64,000 bases of DNA from an uncultured Candidatus Saccharibacteria bacterium. GTDB lineage: Bacteria; Patescibacteriota; Doudnabacteria; UBA920. The stretch lies in contig CAZYQT010000005.1 of the NCBI GenBank assembly GCA_964650255.1, positions 2,006-66,005 on the forward strand. Reading direction: 5' to 3'. Positions 4,719-58,740 of the stretch are shown in pieces. The translations under genes and the position numbers were made by a program. Under the pieces are notes generated by a model. That model worked only from the letters and a program-made list of their open reading frames with translations, made no database searches and was not told where the DNA came from. Numbering within the stretch: the stretch's first letter is position 1; each line of letters begins with the position of its first letter.

Positions 4719-4812
<94 letters not shown>

Positions 4813-6372: not shown

Positions 6373-8934
6373 TTAAACCGGTACAGCCACAGGAGCTTTT
6401 TGGATTTCGAATATTACTTCATCATTTTTTACGTCTGCGGCAATAGTAGTACCGGAAGAAATGTTTTGTGAAATAATTTTCTCGGCCAATGGATCGCTAA
6501 TTAAATCTTGGATGTTTTTGCGAATGTAGCGCGCGCCTTGCAAAGGGTCAAAACTTTTTTCAGAAATATACTTGATTAGCGCAGGAGTAACTTTCAGGGT
6601 GACTTGTTGCATAGCAAGACGCCGTTGAACATCACCAAATTGAATAGTGGTGATCTTGCGTAATTGCTGCATGCCTAGTGGGCGGAAGATTAACACTTTG
6701 TCGATGCGGTTCAAGAATTCTGGGCGCAAATCTTGCTTTAGTTTTTCTAACAGGCCAAGTTTAATCCGATCGTATTCTTTTTCAAGTTTAACTTTTTGGT
6801 CTTCTTCCATTTCGCGGTCCGCAAAACCAATCTTCTTAGCCTGGGCATTCAGTTCCTGCATACCTAAGTTAGATGTCATAATGATAACAGTGTTGGCAAA
6901 ATTAACCCGTTTGCCCTGAGCGTCAGTTAATTGACCATCTTCCAAAATTTGCAGCAAGATGTTGAATACCTCTGGATTAGCTTTTTCGATTTCATCAAAC
7001 AAAACCACAGAGTAAGGCTTGCGTCGCACAGCTTCGGTTAAGCGGCCGCCTTCTTCGTAACCAACGTAACCTGCTGGCGCGCCAACTAAGCGCGACACGT
7101 TGTGGCGTTCCATGAACTCAGACATATCGATGCGGATTAACGCATCAGGATCTTCAAATACTTCCTGGGCAATCATTTTCGCGGTTTCTGTTTTTCCCAC
7201 TCCTGTAGGCCCCAGGAACATAAATGAGCCAATCGGGCGCTGTGGATCTGCAAGACCTGCGCGTGAGCGGCGAATGGTTTTGGCAATTTCATTAACTGCT
7301 TCATCTTGCCCAACAATTCGGGTTTTTAATATCTTTTCTAAATTAGCGAGTTTGCCAATTTCAGTTTGCGCTAATTTCTTCAACGGAATTTTAGTCATCA
7401 TGGAAACAGTGGCCGCAATGTCTTCGCCAGTAATAGAGTAAACCGGATCAGTTTCGGACTTTTCTTGGGTTTCTAAAATTTTCTTCTGATGCAATAGTTT
7501 TTCTTCCTGACTACGCAAATGCAAGGCAGTTGTAAAGTCTTGCGACAACACTGCTTTAGTTTTTTCTTCTTCCAAAGCAACAAGCTCGTTCTCAACTTTT
7601 TTACGGTTCTTCGCAGTTTTGGAGTTGCTGTGAATGCTGCGCAAAGCAGAAGCAGTTTCATCAATTAAGTCCACTGCTTTGTCTGGCAAGAAATGATCTT
7701 GAATATAACGGTCGGAAAGTTCCACTGCCGCGTTTATAGCTTCGTCAGTAATGGTAATTCGGTGATGCTTTTCGTAATTAGGGCGTAGGCCTTTCAAAAT
7801 CGCAATCGATTCTTCTTTGCTTGGCTCTTCTACTAATATAGATTGGAAGCGGCGTTCAAGTGCAGCATCGTGCTCAATATACTTCTTGTATTCCGATAGG
7901 GTAGTGGCACCAATGGTTCGGATTTCGCCGCGAGCTAAAGCAGGCTTCAAAATATTGGCAGCATCAAGACTGCCTGTAGAAGCGCCAGCGCCAATCATAG
8001 TGTGAAGCTCGTCTATAAATAGAATAACGTTTTCATCGGCTTTAACTTCATCAATAATTTGTTTTAAACGATTTTCAAATTCACCGCGGAACATTGAGCC
8101 GGCCACAACTAGAGCAAGGTCTAAAGAGAGAATGCGCTTGTCGAGCAAAATATCTGGCACTTCGCGGTTGGCAATAGCCAAAGCTAAACCTTCCACAATG
8201 GCGGTTTTACCAACACCAGCTTCACCAATTAACACTGGATTGTTTTTGGTGCGGCGACCAAGAATAGAAGTGAGGCGTTCAATTTCTTTTTTGCGACCAA
8301 TCACAGGATCGATTGAACCCATGGCTGCTTTTTTAGTTAGGTCCGTTGTGTAATACTCTAAGACACTTCCTTTGCGACCATCTTGTGGTCCACCAGGTTG
8401 ACCGTGCGCATGGGGATGCTCGCCAGCAGGACCAGCTGCTCCACCAGGCATACCTTGTTCAGCCGGCATGTCTGGAAATTTAGAAATATTTTCAAATACA
8501 GCAACCAGGTTATGTTCTAGCTCACCAATATCAATTCCAAGCTTGGACATAATTACCTTAGCTCGGTTTGGTTGAGTGGTTAGTAACCCATACAAAAAGT
8601 GTTCGGTGCCAATAAATTGATACCCATACTGACTGGCGACAATTGCTGAGCGCTCAATAGCTTGTTTGAGATGTTCTGAAAGTACTGGTTTCCAGGAGTC
8701 AGTTTCGTGATTCTTGTTGACCAGTACCAACTCGGCTTTAATAATTTCTGGCGTAATTTTCGCTTTTATTAAAATTTCCGCAGCAAAAGAGCTCTTTTCC
8801 GCCACTATGCCGAAAAGAAGGTGCTCTGTACCAATATGATCATGACGCAGCTCTTCCGAGGCCATTTGCGCTGCAATAAGCGCATTTTTAGCTCTACTGG
8901 AAAGGCGTTCTAATATAAATGAGAAATTATCCAT
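6373..8934 (-). CDS. clpC: ATP-dependent Clp protease ATP-binding subunit ClpC (two Clp_N repeats, two AAA+ modules, short M-domain)
   Basis: Walker A GEAGVGKT and GPTGVGKT, Walker B ILFIDELH and [10 protein letters not shown], and a ~70 aa middle domain (ClpC-like, not ClpB). I place the start at MDNFSF (8934) because CIRCE and the promoter overlap the 33-nt extension in the track. Confidence 0.85.
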
Positions 8935-51178: not shown

Positions 51179-51207
51179 TTGACAAAACCAAAAAATATCA
51201 TTATAAT
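51179..51207 (+). promoter_or_regulatory. Consensus sigma-70 promoter upstream of the sortase-domain gene
   Basis: TTGACA, a 17-nt spacer, then TATAAT (perfect hexamers). Confidence 0.55.
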
Positions 51208-51244: not shown

Positions 51245-52678
51245 ATGGCTAATTCACCAGACAATCAAGACGATAAAAAACACATGGCTGCTAGCGATTC
51301 TATGCGTGAGTTTTTGAATATGGGGAGTAAGGAAGGCGAACTGTCACCGTCGATCGATCTTTCAGCCAATAGTGATTCGAAATCTGTAGAGGCGCAACAG
51401 ATTGGGGAGCTGCCACCAGACCTGCCGTTTTTAGATACTTTAGAAGAACCAGGAGAAGATTCAGAAGCTCCTTCGCAGACATCACCAAATACTCCGCCCA
51501 GCCCAGCTGGACCAGTGGAGCAAATTCTTGGGCCTGCTGCAGACAAAGGCAACGAAGGCTATGCTTTCGTTCTGTGGTTAGTAAAATCAATCGCTCCCTA
51601 CGTGGTAATTTTTGCGATCGGTTTAGGGTTGTACTTTTTCTATTTTAGCGACTTTTCATTTACTAGTGTTTTCAAAACCAACAGCATCACCCTAGAAAAG
51701 GTGACCAGCTCTTCCAATAAGGATTTGGAAAAACTGAAGAGTGACCAGAAAGAAGAATATTTAAAATGGATGTCGCAATTCTTTTTCGCGGTAAATGATG
51801 ATGCGATTATTTCTATGGATGCCGATGTTTCGGGGAATGGTTTGTCTAACTTTGAAAAGTATTTGTTGGATTTAAATCCAAAAGTTTACAGTACTCGCGG
51901 TACCAGTAAGCCCGATGGCGAGTTGGTAGCTGAAGGAATTAACCCTTGGACCGGTAAGCCTTTCACAGACAAGCAAAAAGAATTAGTTGATAAATACATT
52001 AGCAAAGAGTTAGTCAGCAACCGCATTACCGCGGCAGCGTTGAATCGTGGTGTAACTAAGTTTGCACAATATGTAAACGAAGACTCTCCTTATTACATAG
52101 ATCCGAACACGCTTAAGGAAACAGCGAACAATCCTGCCAATGAAACCCAGAACAATGAGATTGCTCATAACGCAGCTCAGCAGGCGAATTCACCTTCGGC
52201 AGGTAACATCAATCCCGGAAGCGATATTAATCAATCTATCCCAGGACACTTAGACATTCCGGCGAATAACATTTCCGTGCCTCTCATTTGGACTAAGGAT
52301 GTGAAAGATTTTGACAAAGATTTAAAGAATGGCGTGGTGCACTATCCAGGCACTGCTTTGCCTGGACAGTTGGGGACTAGTTATATTTCTGGTCACTCGA
52401 GCGGGTACCTTTGGGATAAGAGTGCATACAAAGAAGTCTTTGCTATTTTGGGAAATGTAACTGATGGTACTTCGTTTACTATCACGGCTACTTTAAATAA
52501 TGGCCAAAAGGTTCGCTATGACTATGTGGTTACTGGTCGAGGAGAGTTTGCTGCTAACGATCAGGCCCAGTTTGTGAATACTGCTGATTCCATGGTGGCT
52601 TTGTCTACTTGCTGGCCAGTGGGAACTACAGCGCGTCGTCTAGTTTTGTTCGCAAAATTAGTCCAAACTAGCCAATAA
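51245..52678 (+). CDS. Sortase-family transpeptidase with a long N-terminal disordered region and one TM
   Basis: C-terminal domain carries the sortase catalytic triad context: YISGHSS (His), ALSTCWP (TLxTC-like Cys), TTARRLV (Arg). The N-terminus is Pro/Ser/Glu-rich followed by a TM helix. Confidence 0.7.
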   Translation: MANSPDNQDDKKHMAASDSMREFLNMGSKEGELSPSIDLSANSDSKSVEAQQIGELPPDLPFLDTLEEPGEDSEAPSQTSPNTPPSPAGPVEQILGPAADKGNEGYAFVLWLVKSIAPYVVIFAIGLGLYFFYFSDFSFTSVFKTNSITLEKVTSSSNKDLEKLKSDQKEEYLKWMSQFFFAVNDDAIISMDADVSGNGLSNFEKYLLDLNPKVYSTRGTSKPDGELVAEGINPWTGKPFTDKQKELVDKYISKELVSNRITAAALNRGVTKFAQYVNEDSPYYIDPNTLKETANNPANETQNNEIAHNAAQQANSPSAGNINPGSDINQSIPGHLDIPANNISVPLIWTKDVKDFDKDLKNGVVHYPGTALPGQLGTSYISGHSSGYLWDKSAYKEVFAILGNVTDGTSFTITATLNNGQKVRYDYVVTGRGEFAANDQAQFVNTADSMVALSTCWPVGTTARRLVLFAKLVQTSQ

Positions 52679-52692
52679 TACTCTAATAATAT

Positions 52693-52722
52693 AAAAAGCC
52701 TCATAAATATGAGGCTTTTTAT
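52693..52722 (+). terminator. Rho-independent terminator
   Basis: AAAAGCCTCAT-aaat-ATGAGGCTTTTT. Confidence 0.65.
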
Positions 52723-52793
52723 TGTTGCTTTATATGCTGTATAGGCATAAAATAATATGATTTCCTCTGTTTTGATAGGGAAATCATCAGCTA

Positions 52794-52822
52794 TTGACAA
52801 GACATGGCTTTTGTGCTATACT
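52794..52822 (+). promoter_or_regulatory. Near-consensus sigma-70 promoter
   Basis: TTGACA, a 17-nt spacer, then TATACT with TGc extended -10. Confidence 0.55.
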
Positions 52823-52828
52823 GTTTGG

Positions 52829-53039
52829 TCATAGTTGAGTTCAGTTATGACAGATAGATTATTGCTCATCACCTCGAAATATTTACTTAGTCGAGCGTTT
52901 GGTGAGCACTGATCTGTCTAACAAGCTTGTATAGTTGTTGGGCGGCACCGCAAGGTGGCAGCAGCGTGCTGCAACCGCTTTAACGCGGTGTAGAAATTTT
53001 GCACATACTATTTTCAAATCGGGGGTTTAATTAAAAATC
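52829..53039 (+). ncRNA. Candidate structured, GC-rich 5' leader or cis-regulatory RNA (~210 nt)
   Basis: Predicted stems GTCAT...ATGAC, GCTCATCACCTCGA...TCGAGCGTTTGGTGAGC, a GNRA hairpin CACC-GCAA-GGTG, GCAGCA-GCG-TGCTGC, and mutually exclusive GCGG/CCGC versus ACCGC/GCGGT pairings. No ORF. Lies between the promoter and the RBS of the next gene. Confidence 0.3.
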
Positions 53040-53996
53040 ATGAAGTATATTTCACTTCTTTTCGTTGCGTTCATTTTCATTGCTTTCGCTGATGTTGCGA
53101 ATGCTCAAATCGTTAAAGACAAGCGTCGGGCGATAAGCCTTGGCACTTGCGTGGACATCGACCAGCTGCCTCAAGACGTTCAGGATCTCCTGGAGAATTC
53201 TGACCTTGATGAGTACGTTGATGAGTCGTCGCTCGACGGTATGGGGCCAAACAAGGTTCGTAATGCCGGCTGGGCAACAGTTGGTGTTTGGAATGAGAGA
53301 CCAGGCAATAAGCATCATAAAACGCAGTTTTGTTTTTCTGTTCTCGACGGCGATGCCGACGTTTGGACTCTGAACGGCGACAGGAATCCACAAGTTGGTT
53401 ATCTTGATAAATGTCTTAAAGACGGTAAACGAACTTTCAAAAATCGCATCCTCGTTCCACCCTCAAAGGTGGTAACAAAGGAAAAGATCGAGTTTAAGGA
53501 TAAGATCGTGTATAAGGACAAACTTGTCGAGAAGGATTGCCCGGAATGCCCGGATGATACTAAACTTGTCGAGGTCACAACTGGCAAGGAACGCTTAACT
53601 GGTGGGCTTAAGGGCACTGCTGTTTCGGCAGGAATTGCTTGCACAATCTCGGGGATTATAAATAAGTCCCTTAGGGACTGCGCAATTGATGCAGCTATAT
53701 CGGCAGGTGGTAATCGTGTTGCTCAGGCCGTTAATCCTTCACCCAATGCTGTCCGCGCTTATTGCGATGGAGAGAATAAGGTTTTCAAAAGAGGGAATGG
53801 CGGTAAGGTAGGCGGTTGTCAGCTGGAATGGGAAGGCAATACAGCCGTGTTGAAATTTGATGGCAAAGAGTGCAAATCACGCACCCTCGGCCACAATCTT
53901 AATACAACTGTTTTCGCGATTGAACGAAACAACGGACCATCCTCAACTCGGAAAACAATCAATACCCAGACACGTCGAGTTCGTGTTGTTAGGTAG
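53040..53996 (+). CDS. Hypothetical secreted Cys-rich protein (318 aa), GC-rich
   Basis: Signal peptide (LLFVAFIFIAFADVANA), about 14 Cys, a KDK-rich mid-region, no recognised family. GC is higher than neighbouring genes. Confidence 0.6.
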   Translation: MKYISLLFVAFIFIAFADVANAQIVKDKRRAISLGTCVDIDQLPQDVQDLLENSDLDEYVDESSLDGMGPNKVRNAGWATVGVWNERPGNKHHKTQFCFSVLDGDADVWTLNGDRNPQVGYLDKCLKDGKRTFKNRILVPPSKVVTKEKIEFKDKIVYKDKLVEKDCPECPDDTKLVEVTTGKERLTGGLKGTAVSAGIACTISGIINKSLRDCAIDAAISAGGNRVAQAVNPSPNAVRAYCDGENKVFKRGNGGKVGGCQLEWEGNTAVLKFDGKECKSRTLGHNLNTTVFAIERNNGPSSTRKTINTQTRRVRVVR

Positions 53997-54026: not shown

Positions 54027-54062
54027 AAGCGGGCAATCTTCAATGATTGCCTGCTTTTTTCA
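54027..54062 (+). terminator. Rho-independent terminator
   Basis: GCGGGCAATC-ttcaat-GATTGCCTGC followed by TTTTTT. Confidence 0.6.
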
Positions 54063-54123
54063 TACCCATTTTTATCTATCAACCAGAATTTGCTATACTA
54101 ATGGCAAGTAAAACTCTAAAAAA

Positions 54124-54876: not shown

Positions 54877-56760
54877 ATGTTAAAACTAAAACTAAAATTA
54901 TTGGTATGTGTTTTAACTGCCACTTCCATTGTCGGAAGTGGGTTTTTTGCTATGCCTGCCAAAGCTGCAGACAAACAAGTTGCAGCTGTACGCCATGATT
55001 TCGTAATCAAATTAAAATCATCCGACGCTCAAATCCTAAAAGCCTTACCAGGCATTACCAATATTCAGCCGGTATTCATTAATGCCCAAAGTGATATCCT
55101 TTCTAATACCTATACTTTTAGTTCAACATCTTCACTAGAAGTTCTGCGCCAAACCTTCGAAGGGTTGTACCAATATCTGGACGCCAACGATCCCATAACA
55201 GATTCTGCAATCAAAACTTCTGGCAAAGCCAAAAAGGTATTACCTAACGACCCATTTTTTACCCAGAATGCTGTTAATGTAGATAAGCAGTGGGGATTGG
55301 TAAAAGCAAATTTTATCACTGCCTGGGAAACGAGCCTGGGGAAGCGCAGCACTGTAGTAGCGGTGATTGATACGGGCATTGATGGTACGCACGAAGATTT
55401 CGAGCACACTAAGTTTGTTGGCGGGTACAACACTATCACCAAAAAAACTCTTGTTGCTGGTGGGAACTCAGACGATAACGGCCACGGTACACTAATAGCA
55501 GGAGTAATTGCCGCTTCGACAGATAACAAAACTGGTATTGCTGGTGCGGCCTCCGGTGTTTCTTTAATGGCGGTTAAAGCTTTAAATTCTAGTGGCAGCG
55601 GCAGTTCATCAAAAATTTCTGAAGCTATTGTTTGGGCCGCCGACCATAATGCCGATGTAATTAATCTTTCTTTGGGTGGTATTGGATTTGGTCACGATAC
55701 TGTGTTAGCAAGTGCCATCACTTATGCCTTTAATAAAAATGTTGTGATTGTTGCAGCGGCTGGCAATGATGTTGCTATTACTGGAGGGAACCTCGATAAA
55801 GATCCAGTGTTTCCGATTTGTGATGATAATGGTCAGAACATGGTGATTGGTGTAACTGCCACAGACAGCAATGACCTCAAGCCATCGTTTGCTAATTACG
55901 GAAAGGCTTGTGTAGATGTTTCCGCTCCAGGCAAGCGCATTTTGTCCACTGTTAACCATGATCCAACTACAGGCCGCGAAGCCCCCGATGCTTACGCTTA
56001 CGCCTCTGGTACATCACTAGCAGTGCCGTTTGTAAGTGCTCAGGCGGGATTGCTTCGTTCAGTATTTCCAAGGGCCACTAATCGACAGATTAGAGACCGT
56101 ATTATCGGCACTGCAGACAGTATCGATGCTCTTAATTTAAGCCAGTGTGGTGACCAGTCTTGCGCTGGTTATCTAGGCGGGGGTCGTATTAATGCTGCAA
56201 AGAGTTTAGAGGCAAAGTTTGCGGATCTTGCTGATGGTGATGTCATTCAGGTTAAAGGAACATCAGAATATTTCTATATTAATGGCGGTAAGAGACAGCC
56301 GATCAGCCCCTTTGTTAAAGGACAGCGATTTGCAAGTGCGAAAATAAAAATAGTTCCACTTTCAGAGTTAGAGGATTTTCCAGAGGGGTCATATGCAGAG
56401 CCGTTAGACGGTACACTGGTGAAGAGTCCAAATGAAGGCGCTGTCTATTATATGCAAGATGGTTTGCGCCGACCATTAACAGCGCAGGTTTTTTCTATGC
56501 GTGGATTTAAGTTTTCCGATATTGTTACTTTGACCAACGTTGAGGTTGGGTCGTGGATTGAAGGTAGTTTCTTAGCCCCTCCAGATGGAACGATCGTTCG
56601 AGGCAAAACCAACCCAACTATTTATTGGACAGTCAACGGAATCATTCATCCGATCAACTATGAATTTTTCGTCAACCGTGGATTGAACGCGCTGCCTATT
56701 ATTTATTTTCCAGATGGTGATGTTGCTAAATTTCCACATGGCGACCCATATGTTTTGTAA
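54877..56760 (+). CDS. Secreted subtilisin-like serine peptidase (S8) with C-terminal ~57 aa repeats
   Basis: Asp (VAVIDTGID), His (HGTLIAG) and Ser (GTSLAVPFV) catalytic motifs, a signal peptide, and three C-terminal repeats (...YFYINGGKRQPISPFVKGQRF...). Confidence 0.85.
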   Translation: MLKLKLKLLVCVLTATSIVGSGFFAMPAKAADKQVAAVRHDFVIKLKSSDAQILKALPGITNIQPVFINAQSDILSNTYTFSSTSSLEVLRQTFEGLYQYLDANDPITDSAIKTSGKAKKVLPNDPFFTQNAVNVDKQWGLVKANFITAWETSLGKRSTVVAVIDTGIDGTHEDFEHTKFVGGYNTITKKTLVAGGNSDDNGHGTLIAGVIAASTDNKTGIAGAASGVSLMAVKALNSSGSGSSSKISEAIVWAADHNADVINLSLGGIGFGHDTVLASAITYAFNKNVVIVAAAGNDVAITGGNLDKDPVFPICDDNGQNMVIGVTATDSNDLKPSFANYGKACVDVSAPGKRILSTVNHDPTTGREAPDAYAYASGTSLAVPFVSAQAGLLRSVFPRATNRQIRDRIIGTADSIDALNLSQCGDQSCAGYLGGGRINAAKSLEAKFADLADGDVIQVKGTSEYFYINGGKRQPISPFVKGQRFASAKIKIVPLSELEDFPEGSYAEPLDGTLVKSPNEGAVYYMQDGLRRPLTAQVFSMRGFKFSDIVTLTNVEVGSWIEGSFLAPPDGTIVRGKTNPTIYWTVNGIIHPINYEFFVNRGLNALPIIYFPDGDVAKFPHGDPYVL

Positions 56761-56853: not shown

Positions 56854-58740
56854 ATGAAGAAACACAAATCATTTTTAATTTACAGTTTAATTATCGGGGG
56901 TTTATTTTTTTCCTCCTTATCTAACCCCGCTGCAGTTTTAGCTGCTGAGCCAGTTCAGTCTGGATTCAACCCTAACAAACTTATTGATGATAAGGTTTTT
57001 TCCAATTCCAAAACTATGACTGCTTCTGATATTCAGAAGTTTCTAGATAGCAAAAACAGTGTTTTAGCAAACACCAGCGATTCATTTATATCCCAATTGA
57101 AGGAACCAGTTAGCAATCAAACTTTAAAGGAAACTTTGGAAGATCCAGGCGCATCATCAACCTCACCAAGGACTGCGGCGCAGTTAATTTTTGATGCTGC
57201 TAAATCTAGCGGCTTAAACCCGCAAGTTATTTTAGTCACTCTTAACAAAGAACAAAGTTTAATTACTGGGCGTCAGAATGCAACTCCAGAACAACTCCAG
57301 CGCGCCTTAGATTTTGCTATGGGTTTTGGCTGTCCAGACAGTCAACCTTGCGGCGACATCTATCGCGGTTTTTATTTTCAACTCTTTGGTGGAGTTGATG
57401 CAGAAAATAATCGTTACTTAGGTGCTGCAAAATCTTTGATGAAATCATTTGAAACCCCAGGCGGTCGTGGCCCTTGGTATAATGGTGCGACCTCAAAAGT
57501 TGGAGACACTATTACTTTGGGTAATACAGTTGGAAATTACGAAGGGGTTGAGGCAAATCAGACGGTCACTCTTTCAAACGCGGCCACTGCTGCGCTTTAC
57601 CGCTACACCCCACATGTTTTTAATGGGAATTATAATTTTTGGCGATTCTTTAAGCTGTGGTTTGGCGGTAAGTCCAGCGACTCAGGCAGTAGTGTGAACG
57701 GTTTGGTTAAAACCTCCTCGACTGGTGATGTGTATGTGGTGGAGAATAATACTCGGTACAAGGTTTTGCCATTCGTGGCCAAGGCCAACGATCTAAAAGT
57801 ATCCAAGGCAAAAAAAGTTAGCAAAAGCACGTTCAATAAATATTCTGATGGCGGCCTCTACCCAGTTCCAGATAATACTTTAATTAAAGTTGGCACTAAA
57901 TATTATTTGTTTTTAGCCAACCAGAAGCGACCAATTAGTGAAGAGAATATTAAGAGCCGTGGTTTAAAAATTGCTGATGCAATTGATGCTAACAGTTCTG
58001 ATGCTGATAAATACACAACCGGCGAACAAATTGCTATTACAGACGGCGCGGTTCTAAAGGGCACGTCCAGGCCAGATGTTTATTTGCTAACCAATGGCAA
58101 ACTCAAGCTATTTACATACGCTACTTTCCAGCAGTACGGAGCAGCAGCGAACATGCTCACTGTGGCCGACACTGTGATTGATGGTTATGCGAAAGATGGT
58201 TTAGTTTTGCCTAAGTCAGGGAGTTTGGTAAAGAGTTTTAACTCTGCAACTGTTTATTTTTACGAAGATGGTCAGAAAAAACCGATGGACGGAGAGATTT
58301 TCCGTAATCGCGGCTTTTCATTGAGCAATGTTTACGAACTCACTCAGGCGGAAATCGACGCCTTGCCGTTAGGACCATTCCCTTTGCCAGCCAACAATAC
58401 ATTTTTTGAGGACAAGAAAACCCATCAATTGTATTGGTACACCGATGGTAAGAAACGATCAATTTCGTCTTTTGTAGCCAAGCAAAAAAACATTACTCCA
58501 GATTTCAGTTTCGGTGAAGACACCATCAAAAATTTACCAGACGGAACTCCAGTGCTGCCAAAAGAAGGCACAGTGTTTAAGAGTGACAAAAAAGCAGACG
58601 TTTATATTATTAGTTCAAGTGTAGCTCGGCCTTTGTCTGCAGCTGCGTTTACAGCACGAGGTATTACTCCTGCTCAAGTTAATATTTTACCTCAGGCAGA
58701 AGTAGATAGCTATCCAAAAGGTTCGCTTTTGACACAATAA
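56854..58740 (+). CDS. Secreted repeat protein (628 aa) sharing the ~57 aa repeat with the S8 peptidase
   Basis: Signal peptide and an N-terminal domain of unknown function (possibly glycan-hydrolase-like). Six C-terminal repeats of consensus dGtlvK...vY.i..g.kRPi....f..rGf. Confidence 0.6.
   Translation: MKKHKSFLIYSLIIGGLFFSSLSNPAAVLAAEPVQSGFNPNKLIDDKVFSNSKTMTASDIQKFLDSKNSVLANTSDSFISQLKEPVSNQTLKETLEDPGASSTSPRTAAQLIFDAAKSSGLNPQVILVTLNKEQSLITGRQNATPEQLQRALDFAMGFGCPDSQPCGDIYRGFYFQLFGGVDAENNRYLGAAKSLMKSFETPGGRGPWYNGATSKVGDTITLGNTVGNYEGVEANQTVTLSNAATAALYRYTPHVFNGNYNFWRFFKLWFGGKSSDSGSSVNGLVKTSSTGDVYVVENNTRYKVLPFVAKANDLKVSKAKKVSKSTFNKYSDGGLYPVPDNTLIKVGTKYYLFLANQKRPISEENIKSRGLKIADAIDANSSDADKYTTGEQIAITDGAVLKGTSRPDVYLLTNGKLKLFTYATFQQYGAAANMLTVADTVIDGYAKDGLVLPKSGSLVKSFNSATVYFYEDGQKKPMDGEIFRNRGFSLSNVYELTQAEIDALPLGPFPLPANNTFFEDKKTHQLYWYTDGKKRSISSFVAKQKNITPDFSFGEDTIKNLPDGTPVLPKEGTVFKSDKKADVYIISSSVARPLSAAAFTARGITPAQVNILPQAEVDSYPKGSLLTQ

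Follow-up and report, generated by a model that had tools for sequence, protein, structure and literature searches.

The messenger RNAs (mRNAs) of several highly expressed envelope and secreted proteins carry stabiliser hairpins at their 5' termini, as in the 5' untranslated region (5' UTR) of E. coli ompA, the leader of B. subtilis aprE and the Lactobacillus S-layer slpA leaders, and these stabilisers require structure, not sequence. We describe here an RNA that resembles them, encoded on the + strand between a sortase gene and the gene of a secreted protein in a stretch of 64,000 nucleotides (nt) from an uncultured Candidatus Saccharibacteria bacterium (contig CAZYQT010000005.1); this whole stretch is referred to below as the window. 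The RNA begins with two hairpins, P1 and P2, the second of which shares its base with an alternative helix, P3, and it constitutes a structured, lineage-specific 5' leader RNA of Saccharibacteria that had not been catalogued before. Like the ompA, aprE and slpA elements it has a hairpin within about 1 nt of the 5' end (here a predicted one), a strong promoter, a long untranslated leader and a monocistronic gene for a secreted protein. Unlike them, it has strongly conserved stem sequences and a second hairpin, of 68 nt, that is also strongly conserved.

Other described systems share part of this design. RNase III processing hairpins are known from R1.1 of phage T7 and from the rnc and pnp leaders, and P2 is like them in being a helix of about 24-26 base pairs (bp) with small mismatches and an asymmetric internal loop in a 5' UTR, a likeness that is architectural only. 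The orphan structured 5' leaders and riboswitch candidates that Rfam files under Cis-reg (leader or riboswitch) are likewise promoter-proximal, lie on the same strand as their gene and contain covarying and competing helices; the leader described here differs from them in matching none of the 4227 models of Rfam 15, in having no recognisable expression platform and no distantly conserved unpaired nucleotides, and in being confined to one group of Saccharibacteria. Attenuators of the trp type and T-box leaders also consist of a chain of mutually exclusive helices, comparable to the P2 base and P3, GCGG/CCGC and ACCGC/GCGGU pairings found here, but the present leader is without a U-tract terminator, a conserved leader peptide, a T-box match or an aminoacyl-tRNA or amino-acid gene. 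Finally, the put hairpins of phage HK022 and the EAR and LoaP hairpins are alike in placing two stem-loops right after a promoter in a polysaccharide or envelope locus; there is no sequence or model similarity to them, and a promoter of their own seems to serve the genes downstream in our locus. As a family the RNA is new, in that it has no Rfam match and no description of it was found in the literature searched, and the structured cis-acting leader as a kind is familiar. Nor did the same searches turn up, for Patescibacteria (the Candidate Phyla Radiation, CPR), any account of gene regulation or of structured non-coding RNAs.

The evidence for the element comes from homologous loci, which were collected from contigs carrying relatives of the downstream open reading frame (ORF) and by DNA-pattern scans of genome and metagenome collections. 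What is conserved in alignments of the gap is the promoter and a core of about 95 nt (window 52828-52919), within which RNAalifold predicts P1 and P2. P1 (52828-52851, + strand) is a 7-bp hairpin at the predicted transcription start, and P2 (52852-52919, + strand) is an irregular hairpin of 68 nt in which a 1x1 mismatch separates an outer stem of 10 bp from a middle stem of 9 bp, a 3' bulge separates the latter from an inner stem of 5 bp, and an apical loop of 13 nt (52878-52890) closes the helix. A covariance model (R1) built from nine sequences finds exactly one + strand copy in each of 12 close loci, at 77-121 bits, as against 20-31 bits on the reverse strand. Over these 12 sequences 96.7% of pair cells in the core are paired, and six pairs (15 cells) have changed on both sides; none of 500 shuffles reaches the paired fraction or the covariation score, and slid controls give 26-43%. 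P1 by itself is 96% paired, with two pairs changed on both sides (UA to GC, and AU to GC or UA). For P2, 14 sequences aligned by MAFFT, independently of the model, give 94.3% pairing and nine compensatory pairs, again matched by none of 500 shuffles, with slid controls at 32-40%. Folding the gap together with orthologous intergenic regions, which the initial annotation had put forward as a check for covariation, finds conserved structure in the core, with 94-97% of pair cells paired and six to nine compensatory pairs. Every P2 that was examined is also unusually stable for its composition, with fold z scores from -3.5 to -6.9 (-6.3 in the window).

Because G.U pairs in the core occur on the + strand only, and because the bit scores of the covariance model are higher on the + strand (109-121) than on the - strand (20-31), we take the RNA to be the + strand transcript. 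Its predicted start falls on the first bases of P1, and none of the 12 close loci departs from a distance of 5 nt between the -10 hexamer and the first P1 pair, a spacing which suggests that the 5' end of the transcript is base-paired. The promoter itself, of the sigma-70 type (52794-52822, + strand), consists of TTGACA (52794-52799), a spacer of 17 nt and TATACT (52817-52822), and is kept in every related locus. The initial annotation had described it in the same terms; it matches the consensus at 11 of 12 positions and has in addition an extended -10 TG at 52814-52815. Sites of the form TTGACA-N16-18-TAWAMT number two in the 64 kilobases (kb) against 0.2 expected, the other being a perfect 12/12 sigma-70 promoter (TTGACA-17-TATAAT, 51179-51207) 5' of the sortase gene. 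Within P2, the apical loop AAUAUUNACUUAG shows almost no variation across the 12 close copies. Both the loop and the 3' bulge differ in L016, L017 and L019, and the apical loop of L018 is a UUAA tetraloop, so that the unpaired nucleotides of P2 are not conserved as a pocket across divergent members. The lower and middle stem of P2, with its mismatches, is kept even in distant copies.

The core is present in 14 distinct loci, namely the 12 close copies and the distant L019 (42 bits) and L017 (28 bits), and in all 14 it stands after the sortase gene, as one copy per locus. The element is real, specific to the transcribed strand, selected for base pairing and fixed in position after the sortase gene. 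Matches in the genome collections are all titled as Saccharibacteria or Patescibacteria metagenome-assembled genomes; exact matches in viral contigs number zero, and a phage origin was set aside. In a further 80 loci (745 kb) seeded by a loose pattern the covariance model found no match, a result that doubles as a control of its specificity. The order sortase, terminator, promoter, RNA, secreted-protein gene, GT2 glycosyltransferase gene and S8 peptidase gene is constant. Rhamnose and glycosyltransferase genes lie 5' of the sortase gene in the relatives' loci, the gap measures about 340-390 nt, a small ORF sometimes lies between the secreted-protein gene and GT2, and a protein of about 630 amino acids (aa) follows the S8 peptidase.

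Orthologues of the sortase number more than 400, and they served to fetch three more distant loci. L019 and L017, whose P2 scores are given above, have sortases 53% and 54% identical to that of the window; L018, at 45%, has no match to the model but shares the promoter and has a leader that is long, structured and GC-rich (GC being guanine plus cytosine), together with a P2-like hairpin of smaller size. Behind the leader of L017 and L018 stand genes for different secreted proteins, without a match to the family profile of the window protein, and the RNA is hence tied to a position in the locus and not to one protein family. We also note that in L019 the leader promoter stands about 600 nt further from the sortase gene, owing to an insert (7537-8095) of direct repeats, some of about 240 nt and others of about 91 nt, which are dispersed, contain TGTCATCCTGAG...GAAGGATCTCTT motifs and resemble miniature repeat elements.

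The core is the most conserved DNA in the locus, above any neighbouring gene. Its identity to the window is 78-95%, compared with 72-81% for the nucleotides of GT2 and 67-75% for those of the sortase gene; in related loci blastn mostly fails to detect the ORF or the 3' domain of the leader. Global pairwise identity is 0.79 in the core and 0.52 in the spacer 5' of the promoter. At the protein level GT2 is the best conserved of the locus, with 79-95% amino-acid identity in the loci that carry the leader core.

The leader as a whole measures about 211 nt before the ATG at 53040. The dense secondary structure that had been noticed in it is borne out on the + strand, where the fold reaches -66.4 kcal/mol (z = -3.2; none of 200 shuffles is equally stable), the - strand giving z = -2.3. 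Leader and ORF had both been called GC-rich; this holds, modestly, for the ORF (GC 0.469, in the top 2% of 957-nt windows), but not for the leader, which at 0.422 hardly departs from the window (0.419), with only positions 52938-52991 rich (0.65) and the conserved core at 0.39. That richer segment corresponds to a variable 3' domain (52946-52990, + strand; GC 0.65), in which all the hairpins named in the initial annotation are found: the GNRA hairpin CACC-GCAA-GGTG (52946-52957), GCAGCA-GCG-TGCTGC (52958-52972) and ACCGC-TTTAAC-GCGGT (52974-52989). So are the alternative pairings, since CACCGC (52946-52951) can pair with GCGGTG (52985-52990). The emphasis placed on the GNRA and GCAGCA hairpins was nevertheless misdirected, for they sit in the variable part of the leader, and the conserved part is the 5' core of P1 and P2. 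A 3' domain of the window type is common to L001 and, in part, L009; elsewhere it is different, as in L002, reduced to one hairpin, as in L013, or absent, as in L011. Competition between CCGC and GCGG recurs in most relatives, and two CCGC sites vie for a single GCGG in 9 of 15 leaders, so that this feature is not universal.

Between P2 and the 3' domain lies the alternative helix. In its window form P3 (52914-52945, + strand) pairs CUGUCUAACAA with UUGUUGGGCGG; since both P3 and the base of P2 use GUCU (52916-52919), the two helices compete. All 15 leaders contain, downstream, a GUUAGRCA-like sequence as a second complement to the 3' end of P2, (C)UGUCUAAC, and the resulting duplexes, at -10 to -20 kcal/mol, are equalled by at most 1% of shuffles in 13 of the 15. 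The partner is adjacent in the window, L001, L009 and L011, and distal in the other leaders, where it closes the variable domain. Single substitutions in L012 (U to C) and L016 (A to U) are matched in the P3 partner. When UGUCU is forced to pair upstream or downstream, the ensemble energies differ by no more than 4 kcal/mol in 12 of 13 leaders. The folding model predicts no change in the exposure of the ribosome-binding site between the P2 and P3 states in these 13 leaders, the site being about half unpaired in both, and no helix that would hide it is consistent across them. The site itself is a G-run (53021-53025, + strand), replaced by GGAGG in most relatives; the G-rich site of the initial annotation is therefore there, but its distance of 14 nt to the ATG is long. 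No terminator-like site was found inside the leader (52830-53039). With neither a terminator nor a helix sequestering the Shine-Dalgarno sequence, no expression platform of the riboswitch type is visible.

Searches against known RNAs were negative for the leader. At gathering thresholds the Rfam 15 models match nothing in the whole window other than three transfer RNA (tRNA) genes, all on the - strand (2026-2099, 2596-2681 and 4722-4812). A permissive scan of 52600-53150 at E<=10 gave matches with E<0.1 only over the terminator of the sortase gene, one of them also covering the promoter, and nothing credible within 52828-53039; the weak leader and small-RNA matches of that scan all correspond to the sortase terminator hairpin. 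Ten related loci gave no Rfam match. The Infernal scan that had been proposed for the leader accordingly found no riboswitch, T-box, 6S or signal recognition particle (SRP) model in it, whether by gathering score or at E<=10. A T-box was considered because GGGCGGCACCGC resembles the T-box sequence by eye; RF00230 is absent at E<=10, the segment is missing in relatives, and the downstream gene encodes a secreted protein without a family match and is not aminoacyl-tRNA-related, so that this candidate was rejected.

The initial annotation had seen no ORF in the leader. There is one, of 21 codons from an ATG (52847-52912, + strand), lying inside P1 and P2, but a ribosome-binding site is lacking and the frame is not conserved, and we judge that it is not a gene. 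An ATG stands at the equivalent of 52847 in 9 of the 12 close copies, opening frames of 11-21 codons with a similar N-terminus (M-T/A-D/G-R-L-L-L-I-T...). This regularity is what a translated leader peptide, acting through peptide-dependent attenuation or as a small protein in its own right, would explain, and a conserved core might be read as its coding sequence. The ATG is, however, inside the P1 stem; in L005 (whose core is identical in L006 and L007) and in L011 it is replaced by CTG, the A to C change being compensated across P1; and no ATG was seen at this position in L017 and L019. Single-nucleotide indels shift the frame, peptide lengths range from 4 to 21 codons, and L002 stops after four. 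In alignments read by eye the substitutions are not biased towards third codon positions, and in codons 7-8 none of the three positions varies. Coding would also leave the compensatory changes in the stems unexplained. The constraint on this region is on RNA structure, not on coding; we regard a translated peptide as the least credible of the explanations considered here, and an attenuator driven by such a peptide was rejected on the same grounds, together with the lack of a terminator in the leader.

We propose that the leader is a cis-acting element for the stability and recognition of its own mRNA, a reading to which we give a probability of roughly 0.45. Transcription from the strong sigma-70-type promoter would yield an RNA whose first bases already fold as P1, with P2 directly after it, followed by the variable 3' domain, an exposed ribosome-binding site and the monocistronic gene of a rapidly diversifying secreted protein. 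By pairing the 5' end completely, P1 would shield the message from 5'-end-dependent decay. P2 would serve as a sequence- and shape-specific site for a putative trans-acting factor that would set how stable the mRNA is or how well it is translated; candidates are RNA-binding proteins and RNases specific for double strands, such as RNase III. Alternatively, the P2 sequence could pair downstream at its 3' end, and the exchange between the P2 base and P3 may tune the recognition of P2. From the sequences, a role in stability and recognition is suggested by the paired predicted 5' end and by a monocistronic unit with its own strong promoter and terminator. It is also suggested by the retention of a structured leader before unrelated proteins in L017 and L018, by the absence of a visible riboswitch platform, and by the pattern of P2 at a distance, where the lower stem is conserved and the apical loop and bulge are not.

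Several points weigh against this proposal. The start site and the 3' end of the transcript, like any processing of it, are predictions, and the sequence set is one of 14-15, drawn from pattern searches. Ten of the 19 pairs in the outer and middle stems of P2 are invariant among the 12 close copies, a conservation of sequence that a simple stabiliser does not need, although it could partly reflect close kinship of the genomes or recombination. In addition, the competition between the P2 base and P3, with the CCGC/GCGG alternatives, is what would be expected of a sensing switch, and our proposal has no need of it.

A switch is indeed the reading that these last observations favour. The leader would then be a new riboswitch or signal-sensing leader with a P1-P2-P3 aptamer, in which a ligand shifts the exchange between the P2 base and P3 and the CCGC/GCGG pairings and so changes the expression of the secreted protein. 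A folded domain supported by covariation, the generic mark of a riboswitch, is present at the level of pairing given above, UGUCUAAC has its two mutually exclusive partners in every leader with states close in energy, the substitutions of L012 and L016 follow the P3 partner, the CCGC competition is found in 9 of 15, and the apical loop hardly varies among close copies. Set against this are the points at which a platform or a pocket should appear: Rfam knows no riboswitch like it, 52830-53039 holds no terminator, the unpaired probability of the ribosome-binding site is equal in both states, the 3' domain that should bear the platform is missing in L011 and minimal in L013, and the apical loop and bulge change in L016, L017, L019 and L018, unlike a ligand pocket. 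The downstream gene offers no metabolic hint of a ligand either. Of the riboswitch or attenuator suggested in the initial annotation, the structured, promoter-driven leader stands and shows covariation, and no Rfam match, internal terminator or modelled change in exposure of the ribosome-binding site was found; we hold the idea to be possible and unlikely. A bolder version would have the P1-P2-P3 core be the sensor of a new riboswitch or signal-responsive RNA class unique to episymbiotic Saccharibacteria, its P2-base/P3 exchange coupling a host or envelope signal to a hypervariable, host-facing secreted protein, and this we find slightly more doubtful still.

Two further explanations were considered. 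It is conceivable that the core, of some 95-120 nt, is processed off the 5' end of the mRNA and acts elsewhere as a small RNA, the ORF merely sharing its promoter; this would suit a compact and stable two-hairpin structure, with an apical loop conserved among close copies, that is far better conserved than the ORF and persists when the downstream gene family changes. It sits poorly with the absence of a terminator or U-run after P2 in any locus, with the invariable position directly 5' of, and on the same strand as, a secreted-protein gene with a good ribosome-binding site, with the single copy per locus and with the lack, by inspection, of any consistent complementarity of the loop to other sequences, and we think it improbable. 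Alternatively, the two hairpins might act in the manner of put, EAR or LoaP RNAs, modifying RNA polymerase for processive antitermination and thereby allowing it to read through terminators into the glycosylation and envelope genes. Two hairpins do follow immediately on a strong promoter in a locus of polysaccharide and envelope functions, and a terminator does stand after the ORF, ahead of GT2, S8, flippase and other genes; yet the likeness is one of architecture, no Rfam model of EAR or similar families matches, GT2 appears to have an extended -10 promoter of its own, and the loci examined showed no NusG paralogue among their genes, no dedicated search for one having been made. Antitermination accordingly strikes us as very improbable, if less so than a translated leader peptide.

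The gene behind the leader encodes a secreted protein of 318 aa (53040-53996, + strand) in which a signal peptide is followed by an N-terminal domain that varies and a C-terminal domain, of about 130 aa, that is conserved. The initial annotation had rightly given it a signal peptide, which as read from the sequence is of the Sec type and ends in ANA before Q, and no recognisable family, since neither Pfam nor NCBIfam matches it; its count of about 14 cysteines was too high, the protein having 10. Comparison with the sequences of the PDB gave no match, and comparison of structure models no matching fold. Homologues number five in a word-indexed search of 5.8 billion proteins and 14 by profile search, and an exhaustive HMMER search of 1.84 billion cluster representatives returned 249 at E<=0.001, of which 22 at E<=1e-30. 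Among the weaker matches listed, most are proteins of about 200-450 aa that cover only the first 110-210 or so profile positions, and the N-terminal domain (of the 'YFSSG..AC..AL.NGTA.FYRP' type) thus appears to be more widespread than the full-length family. Members of the family carry three unrelated types of N-terminal domain, in many cases a Pro/Thr-rich linker, the conserved C-terminal domain and, again in many, a Pro/Thr/Arg-rich tail. AlphaFold models the full-length protein poorly (predicted local distance difference test score, pLDDT, 50) and the C-terminal domain somewhat better (pLDDT 70; predicted template modelling score, pTM, 0.56), predicting for the latter one strand, a hairpin of two long Gly/Ala/Ser-rich helices and a six-stranded beta-meander.

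The window protein has no sortase sorting signal, its tail being polar and basic and without a C-terminal LPXTG-type motif. LPTTG occurs in 2 of 14 family members (P0008 at residue 311 and P0013 at residue 317), about 80-85 residues from the C-terminus, and the other 12 have no LPXTG. A motif G-I/V-P-T-R-P-R/T recurs in the C-terminal tails of the family proteins from L002, L010 and L012, and it also ends the unrelated, membrane-anchored protein of 370 aa of L017 (8630-9742); it may be a shared processing or anchoring signal. Six of 13 ORFs (L005, L006, L010, L012, L013 and L014) begin with AUGAGACAG, and L008, L002 and L009 have AGACAG or AACAG nearby. This start copies the 5' strand of P2 (GACAGACAGAU) and is hence complementary to its 3' strand. 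Pairing of the loop or of a P2 strand with the start-codon region was considered on this account and rejected as a general feature, the pattern being absent in the window, L001, L011 and L016; the shared starts probably reflect homologous signal peptides. Horizontal transfer of the gene, for which its GC content might be taken to speak, was likewise rejected, as the excess is modest and the gene is syntenic in all relatives. The Pam pilus of Ca. Mycosynbacter (doi 10.64898/2026.03.03.709456) belongs to a different operon, beside ATP synthase genes, and is unrelated.

The sortase gene (51245-52678, with a Pfam Sortase match) ends 361 nt before the ATG of the secreted protein, in agreement with the gap of about 360 nt first reported. 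This may be, as the initial annotation had it, the largest non-coding stretch in the window; larger gaps between long ORFs contain plausible small ORFs. The terminator announced for this gap is present as an intrinsic-terminator-like hairpin closing the sortase transcript (52691-52722, + strand), with a stem of 14 pairs followed by a T-run. Past the secreted-protein gene, a terminator-like hairpin with a T-run can be read from the sequence (54029-54061, + strand; the same hairpin is also listed on the - strand, 54051-54032), from which it follows that promoter, leader and ORF form a monocistronic unit. GT2 seems to have its own promoter, judging by an extended -10 element, TGcTATACT (54091-54099), of the same form as that of the leader. 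The gene content of the locus, with sortase, glycosyltransferases, S8 protease and flippase, is one of polysaccharide and envelope functions. We also observe that the C-terminal region of the S8 peptidase (54877-56760) and the next protein, of 628 aa (56854-58740), have repeated segments in common at 20-35% identity (tblastn cross-hits), which suggests a common repeat domain, possibly one that binds the cell wall.

Saccharibacteria are tiny bacteria that live on other bacteria, and the secreted protein, which diversifies rapidly and swaps its N-terminal domains, shows the pattern expected of a host-interaction factor. The best-conserved sequence of a cell-surface locus hence precedes the fastest-diversifying gene of that locus. 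If the leader does no more than stabilise its mRNA, it adds a new but ordinary case to a known kind, and its significance would be greater if a response to a ligand or to a host signal were demonstrated. If it does control or stabilise this mRNA, it would offer a handle on the regulation of surface proteins in these epibionts, and it would supply the genetic systems in development for Saccharibacteria with a compact native element for expression.

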